A stretch of DNA of 64,000 nucleotides from Trueperaceae bacterium. Lineage in GTDB: Bacteria; Deinococcota; Deinococci; Deinococcales; Trueperaceae. Both the position numbers and the translations under genes were made by a program. The DNA is taken from positions 2,592,001 through 2,656,000 of the forward strand of contig OZ243927.1 in the NCBI GenBank assembly GCA_965213925.1, in the 5' to 3' direction. Positions 1,612 through 56,678 of this stretch are shown one piece after another; position 1 is the stretch's first letter, and the number at the start of each line of letters is the position of its first letter. The notes below the pieces were generated by a model. That model was given only the letters and a program-made list of their open reading frames with translations, did not search any database and was not told the origin of the DNA.

Positions 1612-3651
1612 TTGAGCCTGATCAGCATGAGCCCCTCGACACGCCGTTTTTCTGCCGCCGACGCCGCCGAGCTGTACGGCGTGCCGACCTGGAGCGGCGG
1701 CTATTTTCGCGTTGGACAGGGCGGGCAGATGCAGGTCTCGCCCTCCGCTGACGGTCAGGGCGTCGCGCTTTCAGATATCGTCACCGACCTTCAGGCACAA
1801 GGTCACACGCTGCCCGCCGTGCTGCGCCTTCCGCAGATTTTAGAGCACCGCTTGGACGAGCTTAACAGCGCGTTCGCCGCGTCGATCCGAGAGGCTGGGT
1901 ACGGCGGACATTACCAGGGCGTCTTCCCGATCAAGGTCAACCAGCGCCGCGTCGTGGTCGAGACGATCGCCGAGCACGGCGCGCGCTACCGCACCGGCTT
2001 AGAGTCGGGCAGCAAGGCCGAACTCGCCATCTGCTTGGCGCAGGACATCCACCCGGACGCACTGCTCTGCTGCAACGGCTTTAAGGACGACGACTTTATT
2101 CGTCTGGCGCTGCGCGGGCGGCAGCTCGGCAAAAGCGTCGTCATCACCCTGGAGAAATACGCCGAGTTGGAGCGCGTGTTGCGCATAGGTGAGGAATTAG
2201 GCGTCGAGCCCGCGCTGGGGCTGCGCTTCAAGCTCCACGCGAAGGGCTCGGGCAAGTGGGCGGACTCGGGCGGCGACAGCGCCAAGTTCGGGCTCTCCGC
2301 CGCCGAGATGGTCAAGGTCGCGCAGCGGCTCAAGGAATGCGGGCGTTTGCACACGCTCGAGATGCTCCACTGCCACGTCGGTTCTCAACTCACCGACATC
2401 CGCAAAATCCGCGTGGCGGTGCGCGAGGCGGCGCAAGCCTATGCGCAGCTCCGCGTCTTAGGCGTGCCGATTCGCTACCTCAACGTGGGCGGCGGGCTCG
2501 CGGTGGACTACGACGGCTCCAAAACGACCTTCTACGTCTCCGCGAACTACAGCCTGCAGGAGTACGCCGACGCCGTCGTCTACGCCGTGCAAGAGGTTTG
2601 TGACGCTGCTGGTAACGGCGCAGGTGTGCCGCCGCACCCGCACCTCGTCACCGAGTCGGGGCGGGCGCTCACCGCGCACCACGCGGTCGTCGTCTTGCCG
2701 GTCGTGGACGCGGTCGGTCCGACCCGAGCGCCGCTCGAGCTGCCCGAACTGAGTGAACCTGCTCACACGCTCGTCTCTGACATGCGCGAGCTTCTCACGG
2801 ACATCACGCTCAAAAATTACCGCGAGGTCTACTTTGAGGCGGCCAGCAACAAGGACACGATGCACAACCTCTTCGACTTAGGCTACTTAAGCCTCCTGGA
2901 GCGGGCGCACATCGAGAGCCTCTACAGCCGCATCTTGGACCGAGTCTCCAGGGTGATTCAGGGGCTCGAGTACGTCCCCGACGAGTTCGAAGACTTGCCG
3001 AAACTCTTAGCGGACAAGTACATCTGCAACTTCAGCCTCTTCCAGAGCCTGCCCGACAGTTGGGCCATCGGCGCGCTCTTCCCGGTTGCGCCCCTAAGCC
3101 GCCTGGACGAAGCGCCGACGAGAAACGCGACTCTGGTCGACATAAGTTGCGACTCGGACGGGAAGATATAGTATTTCCACGTTTCATTGCTGTAGCAAAG
3201 AAACGTGCGAGCGGATGCGAGAAGAAACAGACGCAATCAGTTGGTGCAGCGAAGTGTGGAAGTACTAATAGATAAGTTCATCGACCTGCGCGACGTCAAG
3301 GCGACGCTGCCGCTGCACCCACTGCGCGAAGGCGAGCCTTACTACTTAGGCGTCTTCTTGTCGGGGGCCTACCAAGACGTGCTCGCCAACTCGCACAACC
3401 TCTTCGGGCGGGTGAACGAGGCGCACGTGCGCGTGACGGGCGAGGGCGGGTTTGTGCTCGAGCGCGTCGTGGGCGGTCAGAAGGCGCGGCGCGTGATCGA
3501 AAACATGGGCTACGAAGCCGTAGAGCTTTACGGCCGGCTCAAAGAGGAGGTCGACGAGCGCCTCCAGGCAGGAGATATCACGGCGCAAGAGGCGAGCGAC
3601 CTCTTAGAGACCTACAATGCAGAATTGGTGGGGTATACGTACCTTGAATAA
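1612..3651 (+). pseudogene. speA: Biosynthetic arginine decarboxylase, interrupted by a 99-bp insertion carrying in-frame stops
   Basis: Motifs VFPIKVNQ, HVGSQ, NVGGGLAVDYDG, CNFSLFQSLPDSW, CDSDGKI|DKFID, GAYQDVL. The two ORF halves (to 3171 and 3205-3651) are in the same frame. RBS TAAGGAG precedes TTG at 1612. Confidence 0.92.
3169..3267. mobile_element. MITE-like element inside speA, 3-bp ATA target duplication
   Basis: Terminal inverted repeats TAGTATTTCCAC / GTGGAAGTACTA (11/12); flanking ATA at 3166-3168 and 3268-3270; removal restores DGKIDKFID. Confidence 0.88.
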
Positions 3652-3711: not shown

Positions 3712-4905
3712 CTACGTGGTCAGCGTTTCAGATTCATCGCTTTTCACGACAACGCCACCAAAAACAATGCGCTGCGGGCGTCTATAGACGCTCGCGTCCT
3801 CCAACGGGTTGCCGTCCCACGCTGTGAGGTCGGCGAACGCGCCGGGTCGCAGCGTGCCGACCTGCCCCGCCAGCCCGAGCGCGTCCGCTGCCACCGTCGT
3901 CGCGGCGCGAAAGACGTCCGAGAGGTCCACGCCAACTTGGGCGAGTAGCGCCAACTCTCTATGCAGGTTGCCGTGCGGGTTAAAGGGCGTGCCTGAGTCG
4001 GTGCCGGAGACGATGGGCACGTCCGCCCGGTAGGCCTCGGCGGTATTTTCACGGTGCCGCCGGGCGATAGGGCGCGTTTTTTCTAGGACCCAGTCGGGCA
4101 TTCCCGCGTCGTCGCCGCCGGAAAGGATGCCGTCTGGCGCGGCTAAAGTCGGCACTAAAAAGCGCGTCTTGAGCATGTCCAAGGCGTCTTCGTCCCATTC
4201 GTCGAACGCGCCGTGCTCGACCGTATCGATGCCCGCGCGAAGGGCATTCTTGATCCCCTCCAAGCCCTGCGCGTGCGCGGCGGTGCGCCGCTCCGCCTTG
4301 TGCGCCTCCTCGACGCCCGCGCGCAGCTCGTCCTCGGTGAGCGCCGTTGCGCCCGCCCGCACGTTTTGCGTCAAAACGCCGCCCGTCGCCATAAACTTGA
4401 CCACCTGTGCGCCCGCTTTGAGTTCGCCGCGCACGGCCCGCCTCATGGCGTCAGGTCCGTCCGCCTCGAGCCCCAACTTATGCCCGTGACCACCCGTCAT
4501 GGTGAGGTTGCGCCCCGAACTCTGGACGCGCGGTCCGCTGAGTCGCCCCTCGGCGACCGCCCTGCCGAGGTCGACCGCGACGTTGTCCGGTCCGCCCAGG
4601 TCGCGCACCGTCGTCACACCCGCCCCGAGCTGCGCGCGCATGTTCTTCTGCGCTAACAGCACGCGCTCCGTCAGGCTCAGCGCTTGTAGATACGCTACTG
4701 GATTCGCGCTCGCGTCCAATAAGAGATGGACGTGCGCGTCGATAAGCCCAGGCGTCACCGTGCCGGTCAGTTGCACGTCTTCAGCGCGCGCCTCACCCTC
4801 TTCAAAGTCCACGATGCGCCCACCCTGTGTGCTGAGGCGTCCGGTGATTCTCTCCAGCGTTTCGGGGAAGAGGAAGGTCGCGTGATAGGTCGTTGAGTGG
4901 CTCAA
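3712..4905 (-). CDS. Metal-dependent amidohydrolase (Xaa-Pro dipeptidase-like)
   Basis: PGLIDAHVH, GVTTVRDLG, KFMATGGV, AAHAQG, DTVEHG, SGTDSG motifs. Confidence 0.85.
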   Translation of the reverse strand: MSHSTTYHATFLFPETLERITGRLSTQGGRIVDFEEGEARAEDVQLTGTVTPGLIDAHVHLLLDASANPVAYLQALSLTERVLLAQKNMRAQLGAGVTTVRDLGGPDNVAVDLGRAVAEGRLSGPRVQSSGRNLTMTGGHGHKLGLEADGPDAMRRAVRGELKAGAQVVKFMATGGVLTQNVRAGATALTEDELRAGVEEAHKAERRTAAHAQGLEGIKNALRAGIDTVEHGAFDEWDEDALDMLKTRFLVPTLAAPDGILSGGDDAGMPDWVLEKTRPIARRHRENTAEAYRADVPIVSGTDSGTPFNPHGNLHRELALLAQVGVDLSDVFRAATTVAADALGLAGQVGTLRPGAFADLTAWDGNPLEDASVYRRPQRIVFGGVVVKSDESETLTT

Positions 4906-5247: not shown

Positions 5248-6078
5248 TTAGGAGCGCAAAAAGTCCAGCATCAACTCGTTAAGCTTCTCGGTGTGCGTGT
5301 ACTGAAGCCCGTGCGGTGCGCCCTCGATGACCTCTAAGCGGCTGTCTTTGATCATCTCGGCAGCTTGCTTGCCGCTCGCGTCTAACGGGACGATCTGGTC
5401 AGCGTCGCCGTGGACGATAAGCGTAGGCACCGTGATCTTCTCCATGTCGGGGCGAAAGTCCGTCGTGCCGAACGCCGTGATGCACCTTTGCATCGCCCTG
5501 GGCGAGCAGAACGCCGCGATCATCTTGTTGTAGTGGAGCAAGTCGTCGCTAATGGAGTCGCCGTCGTCGTAATTGACAAACTGCTTGCCGAAGCTGTCTA
5601 AAAAGGCGATGCGGTCCTCCTTGACGTTCTCCATAAATTCGTCGAACGCTTCTTGCGGCACGCCGTCAGGGTTATCGTCCGTCTGAAGCATGTAAGGCGT
5701 CACCGCGCTGATGAGCATCGCTTTAGAGACGCGGTCTGTGCCGAACTGACCGAAATAACGCGCCACCTCGCCGCCGCCCATCGAAAAGCCCGCTAAGGTC
5801 ACGTCGTGCAGGTCGAGCGCCTTGATGAGTTCGTGGACATCGTTCGACATCGTGTCGTAGTCGTAACCGCTCCAGGGCTTGTCCGAATCGCCGAAGCCGC
5901 GCCTGTCGAACGCGACGCAGCGGTAGCCGGCCTCGGTCAGCGCGTTGACCTGGTACTCCCACATGCGGTGGCTGAGGGGCCAGCCGTGGATGAGTACGAC
6001 GGGCGGACCTTCACCGTAGTCTTGAAAATAGAGGTTGACAGGGTAGTCTCGCTCGGTTGCAACTTGAACAAAAGGCAT
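5248..6078 (-). CDS. Alpha/beta hydrolase (non-heme haloperoxidase/arylesterase family)
   Basis: HGWPL, DRRGFG, GFSMGG nucleophile elbow, HGDADQIVP, PHG. Confidence 0.9.
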   Translation of the reverse strand: MPFVQVATERDYPVNLYFQDYGEGPPVVLIHGWPLSHRMWEYQVNALTEAGYRCVAFDRRGFGDSDKPWSGYDYDTMSNDVHELIKALDLHDVTLAGFSMGGGEVARYFGQFGTDRVSKAMLISAVTPYMLQTDDNPDGVPQEAFDEFMENVKEDRIAFLDSFGKQFVNYDDGDSISDDLLHYNKMIAAFCSPRAMQRCITAFGTTDFRPDMEKITVPTLIVHGDADQIVPLDASGKQAAEMIKDSRLEVIEGAPHGLQYTHTEKLNELMLDFLRS

Positions 6079-6117: not shown

Positions 6118-7578
6118 CTACTGAGCACCGAAGGTGACGGACTTAGATGCGAGTTCTAGCGCTAAGTCCACGGTTTCACCTCCGCGCTGCACCGTAATCG
6201 TCACCTCCGTGCCGACACCTTTTTCGCGCAACACGCCGAGTAGCTCGTCGAAGTTTCTGGTACGTTGACCGTCCACTGCGGTGATCACATCTGCTCGCAG
6301 ATCGAAGTCTACGACCTGCCCGGCGTCGTTGGTGATGGGCTCGGCTTCTAAGTCGCGCAAGCCCGCTCTTTCTGCCGGGCTGTTCGGCGCGACGTTGCCT
6401 ACAATGACGCCCGCACGCGGTCCCAAGTCGAAGCGGCGCTCGCGCCGCGGGTTATAAGCGCCCGTCAGACCGTAGCGCCGTGAACCCAAGGTAAAGCCGA
6501 TCACCGGAATGTCGCGCCGCTCGCCCGCCCTCAAGCTCGCGATCACGTCGCTCTCGGCGGAGACCGGCACCGCGTAGGAGTTAAAGCGCCCGCCCTCTTC
6601 GGCGAAGGGCGCGATGATGCCTTGTGGTGCGCCCGAAAGCGCGATGTAGCTCACGACGCCGATGGCTTCGCCGTCCGCGTTGATGACTGGGCCGCCCGAG
6701 TCGCCGGGGGCGAGGGGGGCGGTGAGTTCGATGGCGGTATCGGCGAATGTCGAGCGGAGAGGCGCGACGTCTAGGCGCGTGACCTCGCCGACGCGCCCCT
6801 CCAAAAAGTCGCCGCGGCTGTTGCCGATAGCCAGTACCTCGCTGCCAATCTCAGTGGTTAAGCCCGTGAGCGGCAGGTAGGGAACTTCATTAGAGACGTC
6901 CGCTTGCAAGAGCGCGAGGTCGAGGTAGGCGTCGAAGCCGATGAGTTCCAAGGGGTAGCGCATCTGGTTGGGACCGACCGCGACGATGCTGCGCTCACGG
7001 GCTTGACCGGGGTTGGTCGGGTCGACCACGTGATACGCCGTCAGGACGAGACCGTCGGGCGAGATGAAAAAGCCGGAGCCGACGCCCTGCACAACCGAGT
7101 TAAAAACGTTGCCGCTTCTCACCTCGAGCTGCAAGCTCGCCGGGCGCGTCTGTTCGAAGACGCTGAGCAGGGTGCCGCTCGGAGCGACCACTTCGGGCAG
7201 GCCGCGCTGCGCGAAGTGGAGTTGGGGCTCCTCCGGGCGCTGGACACTCAGCGCGACGAGCCCGATTGTAAAGAGAAGACCCAAAAGGAGAAAAACGCGC
7301 CGCATGGAGCGCAGAGGACCCGGCGGGGGCGCAGCGGTCTGTGACGCTGCGGGGAGAGGCACCCTGGGCCGCCCGAGAGCCACCTCGAGCTGTTCCTCTT
7401 CGCGCCCGTCCGACGTCTGCGCCTCAGCACCTTGTTCCTCAAATTGTGAGGTTACAGCCTGTGACTCTTCAGCTTCATCCTGGGCTCGAGTTTCGCCCTG
7501 CGTTTCCTGCGCCGCGCCCTGCACCGGCTCCCGTCTCCTCTGCTCGGTGGCTAGCGCCCGTTCGTCCTCGTAATTCAC
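6118..7578 (-). CDS. HtrA/DegP-like membrane-anchored serine protease (S1C) with PDZ domain
   Basis: TM segment, GSGFFISPDGLVLTAYHVV, DLALL, PGDSGGP, SPAERAGL PDZ motif. Confidence 0.85.
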   Translation of the reverse strand: MNYEDERALATEQRRREPVQGAAQETQGETRAQDEAEESQAVTSQFEEQGAEAQTSDGREEEQLEVALGRPRVPLPAASQTAAPPPGPLRSMRRVFLLLGLLFTIGLVALSVQRPEEPQLHFAQRGLPEVVAPSGTLLSVFEQTRPASLQLEVRSGNVFNSVVQGVGSGFFISPDGLVLTAYHVVDPTNPGQARERSIVAVGPNQMRYPLELIGFDAYLDLALLQADVSNEVPYLPLTGLTTEIGSEVLAIGNSRGDFLEGRVGEVTRLDVAPLRSTFADTAIELTAPLAPGDSGGPVINADGEAIGVVSYIALSGAPQGIIAPFAEEGGRFNSYAVPVSAESDVIASLRAGERRDIPVIGFTLGSRRYGLTGAYNPRRERRFDLGPRAGVIVGNVAPNSPAERAGLRDLEAEPITNDAGQVVDFDLRADVITAVDGQRTRNFDELLGVLREKGVGTEVTITVQRGGETVDLALELASKSVTFGAQ

Positions 7579-55015: not shown

Positions 55016-55244
55016 ACCGTTAATTGCATAATGCTGAACGCTGGTTCCACTAGATTCTCACGGCGTGATCCTTCGCAAGGAGAAACTCTAAACCGAGCGC
55101 ACTATCCCATGTTCATTGAGGATACGCTTATATGCCGAGGGCATGGAGCGTATGGGCAATGTGCTTTCGTCCACCTACTAACGACATCCAAGGCGTAGAG
55201 ACATTTTGCTATGACGGGACGCCTCGGCATCTAAGCCTTAACTA

Positions 55245-56678
55245 TCAATGCTTGATCATCACGTGTTTGGTGACCTGATAGTCCCTGACCGCTTCAACCG
55301 ACATGTCTTTACCGAAGCCCGACTGCTTAAAGCCGCCATGCGGTCCTTCGGAGATCAGTTGCGTGTGGTCGTTCACCCAGAGCGTGCCGTACTCGAGCTG
55401 ACCACTAAGATGCAACGCTCGCCCCACATCTTTTGTGAAGATCGAGGCAGCCAAGCCGTAAGGGACATCGTTGGCGAGCGACACCGCGTCGGCTTCATCC
55501 TCATAAGAGGAGAGCACCAACACAGGACCGAAGACTTCGCTCTGCATGATTTCCGAATCCTGTTTTGCGCCCCTTATCACGGTGGGTTCGAAGTAGTAGC
55601 CCGCGCCCTCCTGAGCGTTGCCCCCTAGAATGACTTCGGCTCCCTCCGCCTCAGCACGTTTCACGAACCCTTCGACGCGCGAACGTTGCGCCTGCGAAAT
55701 GAGGGGTCCCACCATCGTATCGTTCGCAAAGGGGTCGCCGACTTGAACCACTTTCATCGCTTCGATTAGGGCTTCTTCCACCTCCTTGTAACGCGCTTTC
55801 GGCGCGTAGACTCGCGTGGCAGCAGTGCAATCCTGACCCGTGTTTACAATCGCGGCGAGGCTCGCTTTTTGGGCGACGAGACCGATATCAGCGTCCTCGA
55901 AGACCAAGACGGGCGCTTTGCCGCCCAGCTCGAGATGTACTCTTTTAAGCGTCTTCGCCGCGCTCGCCATAGTTTTTTTACCTGTCGCCGTTGACCCCGT
56001 TAAACTGACCATTCGGACGAGCGGATGCTCTAAGGCGGCTTGTCCGACCTCCGCACCGCCCGAAACGATATTGACGACACCCTCAGGAATCCCCGCCTCT
56101 CGGATGAGGTCCGCGAGCATCAAGGTGGTCAGCGGCGTTTCCTGAGCGGGTTTGAGCACGACGGTGCACCCCGCCGCCAGCGCCGGTCCGAGCTTCCACG
56201 CCGCCATCATAAGCGGATAGTTCCAGGGCGCAATCTGCCCGACGACACCGACGCTCTCGCGCCGGAACATCGAGGTGTAGCCCGGTGCGTAGTCGCCCGC
56301 TGCCATACCGTTCGTATCGCGAGCTGCCGCCGCGAAGAAGCGCAGGTTATCGACTACAAAGGGCAAGTCGGTGGCGAGGCTCAAAAACGCATAAGGCTTG
56401 CCTGTATTCTCGCTCTCGACTTTGGCAAACGCTTCAGTGCGTGTCTCGAGCAAGTCAGCAAGCCGCCACAGCGCATTCGAACGCTCGCCCGGCGTCAGTT
56501 TCGACCAGCGCCCATCCGTAAAAGCGTTGTGCGCTGCGTAGACAGCGGCGTCAACGTCCTCTCCGGTCGCCTCAGCGACTTCAGCAACCCTTTCACCCGT
56601 CGCCGGATTTTCGATGGGCGTACGAGCGTCACCCTTGCTTTTGGTTCACTGACCGTCGATGAATAGGTCGAATTTCAT
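55245..56678 (-). pseudogene. Aminobutyraldehyde dehydrogenase-like aldehyde dehydrogenase with early TGA
   Basis: MKFDLFIDGQ*TKS...NPATGE (TGA at 56646-56648), PWNYPL, LELGGKAP, GQDCTAATR, EVFGPV, GGFKQSGFGKD. Confidence 0.85.

Follow-up and report, generated by a model that had tools for sequence, protein, structure and literature searches.

A TAG-ended MITE with the layout of a translational bypass cassette most likely inactivated speA of a Trueperaceae bacterium in a recent insertion

Introduction

Does a stop codon within the gene for biosynthetic arginine decarboxylase end its protein, or can ribosomes reach the second half of the gene beyond it? This question is raised by speA in the window, a stretch of 64,000 nt from the genome of an uncultured Trueperaceae species, where the coding sequence breaks off at an inserted element and resumes behind it in the same frame. 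The initial annotation had read the insert as laid out for translational bypass, with an ATA codon followed immediately by TAG and the same codon reappearing just before the conserved sequence resumes. It had suggested a MITE that ribosomes can hop over and had offered a recent knockout as a second reading that gives the same picture.

Two known systems stand behind the first reading. In T4 gene 60, as outlined in the account cited here, matched GGA codons border a 50-nt gap, a UAG follows the take-off codon and a take-off stem-loop forms in the A site, while a nascent-peptide signal that holds the peptidyl-tRNA and 5' and 3' stem-loops contribute as well (PMC7026636). For the bypass elements (byps) in mitochondria of the yeast Magnusiomyces capitatus, the work cited here gives 81 copies in genes, with lengths of 27-55 nt (bioRxiv 10.1101/2022.08.31.505936).

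The interrupted speA gene

All features described here lie on the forward strand. The N-terminal part of speA (1627..3168) comprises 514 codons, from an ATG at 1627 to Ile-514 (ATA, 3166-3168); its translation has no internal stop, carries the motif CDSDG just 5' of the break and matches the NCBIfam profile NF003763 (biosynthetic arginine decarboxylase, 636 positions) with E = 2.1e-196. The C-terminal part (3271..3651), 126 codons and a stop at 3649-3651, is intact, lies in the frame of the N-terminal part and matches the same profile with E = 7.3e-38; the sequence encoded 3' of 3271 includes ATLPLHPLR and VIENMGYEAVELYGR. As the N-terminal half covers profile positions 6-508 and the piece 3268-3651 covers positions 508-634, the two halves join exactly. 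A further stop or frameshift was sought in both halves, in the translation and in the alignment with orthologues, and none was found, in agreement with the initial annotation, which had seen no other lesion there. The break lies five residues after CDSDG, which we take to be a catalytic-site motif of SpeA.

Across the break, the window reads GAC GGG AAG ATA up to the insert, TAG TAT TTC CAC at its start, GGA AGT ACT A at its end and ATA GAT AAG TTC ATC GAC beyond it, which translates in the speA frame as CDSDGKI-stop-YFHVSLL-stop-QRNV...VEVLIDKFIDLR. The insert is a 99-bp element (3169..3267, TAG...CTA) between two copies of ATA. The left copy (3166..3168) is the codon-aligned Ile codon that had been interpreted as the take-off site, and the right copy (3268..3270), interpreted as the landing codon, directly precedes the codons for DKFID. 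The element and one ATA together measure 102 nt and lie in phase 0 in speA. Thus, the layout that had drawn attention to the locus is present in every detail.

The termini are inverted repeats, TAGTATTTCCAC on the left (3169..3180), which opens with the in-frame TAG stop (3169-3171), and GTGGAAGTACTA on the right (3256..3267); positions 1-12 of the element pair with positions 88-99 through 11 Watson-Crick pairs and one G-U pair. Over the first 22 positions there are 17 Watson-Crick pairs, 4 G-U pairs and 1 A-C mismatch, i.e., 21 of 22 positions pair when G-U is included, which bears out the previously proposed stem of about 22 bp with G-U wobbles. The hairpin described just after the stop was found as well. 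This subterminal hairpin (3178..3207) has 13-nt arms and a TGTA loop, with one internal mismatch in the speA copy, and its 13-bp stem sequence covaries between subfamilies of the element. Translation places a second in-frame TAG at 3193..3195, and an alignment of the family copies described below identified a conserved core, GAGCGGATGCGA, at 3209..3220.

At minimum energy, the element forms a three-way junction in which the 3178-3207 hairpin and a third hairpin sit on a terminal stem of 12 bp, with -34.9 kcal/mol vs -31.6 kcal/mol for the long-stem form. When the flanks are included, the fold reaches -38.5 kcal/mol (z = -3.2), a stability attained by 0 of 200 shuffled sequences. No match at E <= 1 was obtained when positions 3050-3400 were searched against Rfam.

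A MITE family and its IS630-family partners

BLAST and iterated nhmmer searches identified about 19 related loci in the window's own genome (G000). Members of the family are 95-230 bp long and follow one plan, with the ends TAGCATTT[C/G]CA ... TG[G/C]AAATGCT[A/G], the subterminal hairpin and the core. In the three genomes of the genus, a strict motif matched 13 times in G000, 10 times in G001 and 32 times in G002, 55 times in total vs 0 in reversed-pattern controls. An earlier, narrower motif had no match in the other 125 of the 128 family genomes searched. With the element as the query, BLAST also reached two other genera, where the matches were weaker (G005 at 80% and G024 at 78% identity). 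A loose-pattern scan of genome contigs gave, among the matches listed, mostly chance hits and at least five real loci (one Trueperaceae MAG).

Altogether, 58 copies were delimited in G000, G001 and G002, leaving aside L162, which has no recognisable right end, and L163. Perfect 3-bp duplications flank 48 of the 58. The direct repeats outside the TAG...CT[A/G] ends vary (CAG, TAC, ATA, TTT, CTT, CAA, TGA, GAT, TGG, AAG and others) and many are TA-rich. Two pairs of G000 copies represent one insertion each within a larger duplicated stretch. The copies are small, noncoding (with stops in the host frame) and dispersed, and they have terminal inverted repeats and a duplication of constant length. 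These are the properties of a MITE, and the insert had been proposed to be one, with TAG ends and a 3-bp duplication.

The speA copy has three close matches in G000, each with 98% identity to it over 93 bp, and these three do not differ from each other over 99 bp. Relative to its nearest G000 copies, the speA copy shows 5 differences in 99 positions, among them a change in one inverted repeat that is paired with a change in the other, and a right end of this kind is also seen in a G002 copy (95% identity over 94 bp). Dating of the insertion by this 5/99 divergence was considered and rejected, because cut-and-paste movement leaves no donor copy and a similar right-end variant exists in G002.

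TAGCAYTTCCA ends with 3-bp duplications also border two longer elements in G000, each of about 1 kb: C1:1889067-1890059 and the degraded C1:1552937-1553987. In the former, two ORFs overlap at an A7 run and contain the Pfam domains HTH_Tnp_IS630 (E = 7.3e-10) and DDE_3 (E = 9.9e-32), and tblastn matches in plasmids are annotated as IS630 family transposase (about 40% identity). Because its ends and 3-bp duplications are common to these transposase-encoding elements, we classify the insert as a non-autonomous derivative, a MITE of an IS630-family element. A shorter stretch next to the core, CGAGCGGAT (3208-3216), recurs in the degraded copy, close to where its transposase ORF begins, and an origin of the MITE by internal deletion would fit this occurrence. 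As a rule, the IS630 family duplicates a TA target. The duplications found here are 3 bp long and include CAG, TGG, GAT, AAG and TTT, so that membership in this family is assigned by the transposase domains only.

Probable insertional inactivation of speA

We consider it very probable that speA underwent a recent insertional inactivation by the MITE. The 99-bp MITE, an internally deleted IS630-family derivative presumably moved in trans by the DDE transposase of that family, would have inserted at the AT-rich ATA, the codon of Ile-514, and would have duplicated this ATA. Since the element begins with TAG and the duplication is codon-aligned, ribosomes would meet a stop directly after Ile-514 and produce a 514-residue SpeA without the last 126 residues, leaving the gene presumably inactive. 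The event would be recent relative to the species split in the genus, such that no further lesion has accumulated yet.

All of the bypass hallmarks follow from an insertion in phase 0, for which the expected share is 0.30, because the duplication supplies the matched codons, the TAG end the stop and the inverted repeats the stem. Orientation is irrelevant, as both ends of the speA copy read TAG. The layout is not beyond chance once the element is recognised, and the 102-nt length plays no role in hopping. The recent knockout that the initial annotation had named as giving the same picture is therefore the best explanation.

Such a knockout might also be reversible, with precise excision of a still-mobile MITE, mediated by the transposase or by the repeats, restoring speA in part of the population. 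The three 98% identical copies imply recent activity of the family, an IS630-family element that is possibly intact (its two ORFs overlap at the A7 run) is present, and excision of the element plus one ATA would restore the reading frame of the orthologues. However, an empty-site allele was not seen among the listed contigs of four sequencing runs, which leave the junctions uncovered, there is no sign of selection for loss or regain of speA, and we regard reversibility as very unlikely.

The speA genes of G001 and G002 are uninterrupted (open frames of 647 and 689 aa, 87% identity) and have a single ATA/ATC at the site; the insert occurs neither in these two orthologues nor in any of the 119 other listed homologues. 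Among the best 120 database proteins, the 514-aa fragment from the window is alone in its cluster, while 118 of the other 119 are 631-689 aa long and one has 579 aa. A second strain of the species was sought among these 120 proteins and not found. SpeA homologues are present in Truepera radiovictrix (71% identity) and in several Trueperaceae MAGs; together with the MAG loci from the contig scan, they assign the organism to the Trueperaceae.

In both halves of speA, dN/dS is 0.11-0.16, the same as between the intact orthologues, and unique changes at otherwise invariant sites (N-terminal plus C-terminal half) number 6+1 in G000 vs 5+1 and 6+0 in the orthologues. With a between-species dS of about 0.6-0.8, the dN/dS of the halves can neither date nor detect a recent loss. 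The lack of decay only says that the insertion would be young relative to speciation or that the gene would still be under selection.

The search for an alternative arginine decarboxylase in the genome gave 0 hits for PF01276 and 0 for PF01862, and the sole other PF02784 gene, inspected by eye, resembles lysA by sequence. The genome also has three intact arginase-family genes and an intact gene for spermidine synthase. Since these downstream genes are intact and no alternative decarboxylase was found, a knockout of speA would leave the pathway headless. The intact polyamine genes fit a recent loss, and bypass would predict the same. Among 40 relatives of the order, 7 gave no speA match, including two with single-contig genomes, and an eighth (67% complete) gave a weak match only; loss of speA is thus tolerated in the group.

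Copies within genes and their reading phase

Only four of the 58 copies lie inside genes, and three of these, including the one in speA, are codon-aligned (phase 0). At L174 in G002, a 96-bp copy splits a gene of XRE type (HTH_3) in phase 0, with QEDIL followed by the TAG of the element and L ITTLERY behind it; an intact homologue in G000 represents the empty site. At L183 in G002, codon 33 of a membrane-protein gene is followed by a 101-bp copy, likewise in phase 0 (CTA-TAG...CTA), and the G001 orthologue as well as a G002 paralogue read straight through the empty site. Relative to two homologues, this gene has a further 14-nt frameshifting deletion 409 nt downstream and is, judging from its sequence, a decaying pseudogene despite a bypass layout like that of speA. 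At L181 in G002, a gene for an NAD(P)-binding protein (N-terminal part: NAD_binding_10, E = 1.9e-10) is interrupted by a 101-bp copy that is out of phase, and the 104 added bases shift the frame. L183 and L181 show that some insertions of this family are plain knockouts and have persisted. Apparent ORFs that span the G000 copies at 801596 and 4214474 and the copy L196 were considered and, by eye, not accepted as genic, their junctions falling either 5' of a start codon within AT-rich sequence or in frames that look antisense.

To derive the expected phase-0 share of 0.30, long G000 ORFs were combined with the spectrum of duplications observed at 40 non-genic copies. Against it, three of four copies in phase 0 corresponds to P = 0.086, and two of three, when speA is left out, to P = 0.22; the excess is suggestive, not significant. 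A MITE that ribosomes can hop over had been expected to be codon-aligned within genes more often than chance, and that proposal has gained no support from these numbers, with L181 out of phase. The small number of intragenic copies argues against an element that is generally harmless in genes, and the preference for AT-rich targets also contributes to it.

Several observations run against a knockout: the three of four intragenic copies in phase 0 vs 0.30 expected, the pathway left headless, the lack of an identical donor copy in the genome, and the dN/dS of both speA halves, which is like that of the intact orthologues but cannot reveal a recent loss at this dS. Cut-and-paste transposition would explain the missing donor.

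Alternative readings of the locus

In a programmed bypass, peptidyl-tRNA-Ile would leave the AUA at 3166-3168 with UAG in the A site and re-pair with the AUA at 3268-3270, yielding wild-type SpeA. The matched AUA codons and the immediate UAG agree with this, as does the lack of another AUA in the 99-nt gap, for which we roughly estimate a chance of about 0.14. The fold is compact, and its terminal stem of 12-22 bp sets both AUA codons side by side. Codon alignment is seen in three of the four family members within genes, the search for a second arginine decarboxylase found none beside intact downstream polyamine genes, and speA is otherwise free of lesions. However, each hallmark is automatic from a phase-0 insertion of the element, the phase excess is not significant, and merely 4 of 58 copies are intragenic, among which L181 lies out of phase and the gene at L183 bears another, frameshifting lesion. 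The insertion is missing from both same-genus orthologues and the 119 other listed homologues. The nearest local hairpin, 3178-3207, begins 9 nt after the start of the stop rather than at the take-off codon; a stem does start at the UAG, its partner strand being the distal terminus of the insert. The gap measures 99 nt, compared with 50 nt in gene 60 and 27-55 nt in the mitochondrial elements, as given in the outlines of these systems (PMC7026636, bioRxiv 10.1101/2022.08.31.505936). A programmed bypass at this site is therefore highly improbable. We give just as little probability to the wider form of this reading, in which the ribosome would slide over the folded 99-nt MITE RNA and the family would be the bacterial counterpart of the yeast mitochondrial bypass elements.

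The interrupted gene could also be a minority allele, or an artefact of assembly from a mixed sample, and not the working gene of the organism. The best-matching sequencing run (0.49 of sampled words) contains several related strains, with contigs of about 91% identity beside identical ones. Among the listed contigs of four runs, neither junction is bridged, no joint is seen and the bins 3096-3167 are almost uncovered, so that these contigs bear on neither a filled nor an empty allele. Small shares in biofilm metagenome runs represent MITE pieces in other contexts only. Metagenome scans with a degenerate speA::MITE junction pattern and with a 24-nt exact speA stretch beside the site gave 0 matches each, in collections from which close records may be missing. 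However, the insert has exact boundaries and a perfect 3-bp duplication, as real transposition leaves behind, and it sits in a contig of 4.58 Mb, which makes this explanation extremely unlikely.

TAG is a true stop in this genome, ending 355 of 1153 long ORFs, and aragorn identified 46 tRNA genes and one tmRNA gene, with no CUA-anticodon (suppressor) tRNA found among them. Because TAG is such a common stop and no CUA tRNA was found, read-through of two TAGs is not credible, and the argument that the second TAG (3193-3195) speaks against simple read-through holds, as both would have to be suppressed. Tolerance at the protein level, either by read-through with a 34-residue insertion or as a split enzyme with a C-terminal piece starting at GTG 3205, is scarcely conceivable: the 102-nt insert is in frame with only TAG stops and an in-frame ORF (3205-3651) begins with GTG inside the element, but two TAGs need suppression, a Shine-Dalgarno-like purine run was not found upstream of 3205, and the break lies just past CDSDG with its presumed catalytic role.

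Comparison with known systems

Taken as a knockout, speA of this uncultured Trueperaceae species would be a young pseudogene that arose via a previously undescribed MITE family, a result at the level of annotation, and the genome would then be without a recognisable arginine decarboxylase while the rest of the polyamine route is intact. If bypass were true, speA and the XRE-type gene of G002 would stay partly functional, which would explain the three of four copies in phase 0; a 99-nt hop would be twice the longest known programmed bypass and the first chromosomal bacterial case.

RUP of Streptococcus pneumoniae is a bacterial MITE that stems from an insertion sequence of the IS630/Tc1-mariner type. 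The family described here resembles RUP-like MITEs in its size of about 100 bp, its terminal inverted repeats, the lack of an ORF, its many, mostly intergenic copies and the ends that it has in common with a resident IS630 element. It differs from them in the varied 3-bp duplication (not TA), the covarying 13-bp subterminal hairpin and a strict motif found in one genus. Rickettsia palindromic elements (RPE) are open in the frame of their host genes and are translated within them. The speA insert is likewise a palindromic mobile element of about 100 bp that lies in frame in a protein-coding gene; in contrast to RPE, it has two in-frame TAGs in a genome where TAG terminates, and its frame is not open.

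With the byps of Magnusiomyces capitatus, as they are summarised in the report, the family has in common that small mobile inserts in coding sequence are bordered by matched codons (bioRxiv 10.1101/2022.08.31.505936). Unlike them, the MITE measures 95-230 bp, and of its four intragenic copies among 58, one lies in a decaying gene and one is out of phase. A short gap, given for byps and gene 60 in the accounts cited, and retention in relatives with a functional downstream ORF, to be expected of a programmed bypass, are not found for the speA insert. It is most improbable that the MITE family is a bacterial analogue of byps, in which the codon-aligned TAG end, the duplicated codon and the three-way-junction RNA would allow a 99-nt hop.

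The likeness to T4 gene 60 consists of identical codons that flank an untranslated insert, a UAG after the first of them, RNA structure and, for both that gene and byps, a mobile origin, as far as the cited accounts describe these features (PMC7026636, bioRxiv 10.1101/2022.08.31.505936). In contrast to the gene 60 outlined there, the gap in speA is 99 nt, not 50 nt, and the nearest local hairpin starts 9 nt past the start of the stop. The speA insert also differs in being unconserved in relatives, and transposition alone explains its layout. A transposon that ends in a stop triplet and makes a 3-bp duplication mimics the hallmarks of gene 60 in about one third of its genic insertions, and for this reason such a layout should not by itself count as evidence of bypass.

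MITE copies within genes

No polyamine genes adjoin speA in the window. Its neighbours, all on the opposite strand (-), encode an amidohydrolase (window 3712-4905), an alpha/beta hydrolase (5248-6078) and a trypsin-like/PDZ protease (6118-7578), and the MITE insertion is not expected to exert a polar effect on any gene downstream.

Three further genes, all in G002, one of the two other genomes of the genus, carry copies of the element. A membrane-protein gene on contig C8 (L183:1398-2400) has a MITE after codon 33 in phase 0 and a second lesion, a 14-nt deletion that shifts the reading frame; G002 also contains an undamaged paralogue (L195), and G001, the other congener, has an orthologue (L194). 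On contig C4, a 96-bp copy splits an XRE-type HTH gene (L174:1249-1680), again in phase 0 (TTA-TAG...TTA); the first TAG is the only stop that this insert adds to the host reading frame. Directly downstream lies an ORF of 320 aa that contains a DPPY motif and probably encodes a DNA methyltransferase; because of this position, the HTH gene may encode a controller protein of a restriction-modification system. In the third gene, NAD(P)-binding (NmrA/epimerase-like) and also on C8 (L181:1034-1998), a 101-bp copy has inserted out of phase.

Subterminal hairpin and modular architecture

The subterminal hairpin of 13 bp was compared between the speA copy (window 3178-3207) and 54 family copies (G000, L148-L197): there are at least 12 distinct stem sequences, nearly all perfectly complementary, around a 4-nt loop that reads TGTA or its reverse complement TACA. 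Few copies have a mismatch in the stem, the speA copy among them. This pattern suggests that a DNA palindrome is being maintained or flipped, rather than that an RNA is under selection.

The family is modular. Longer members of 120-230 bp (G000:C1:1375718-1375836, 4214303-4214475, 55174-55339, 819440-819579 and 1226241-1226470, with further loci L156-L161) carry an extra internal module after the conserved core, starting GCGTTCACGAAGTC. Two identical copies (G000:C1:801499-801597 and 1476028-1476126), each with a TAC duplication, share an AT-rich flank of ~60-70 bp on either side, and therefore sit inside a larger duplicated unit.

IS630-family partner elements

Two IS630-family insertion sequences in the window's own genome (L164:501-1493 = G000:C1:1889067-1890059; L165:501-1551 = G000:C1:1552937-1553987) encode HTH_Tnp_IS630 and DDE_3 domains; in the former, two ORFs overlap at an A7 run. 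Elements of the IS630/Tc1-mariner group as a rule duplicate TA at their target, whereas both insertion sequences and all their MITEs make target duplications of 3 bp that vary in sequence.
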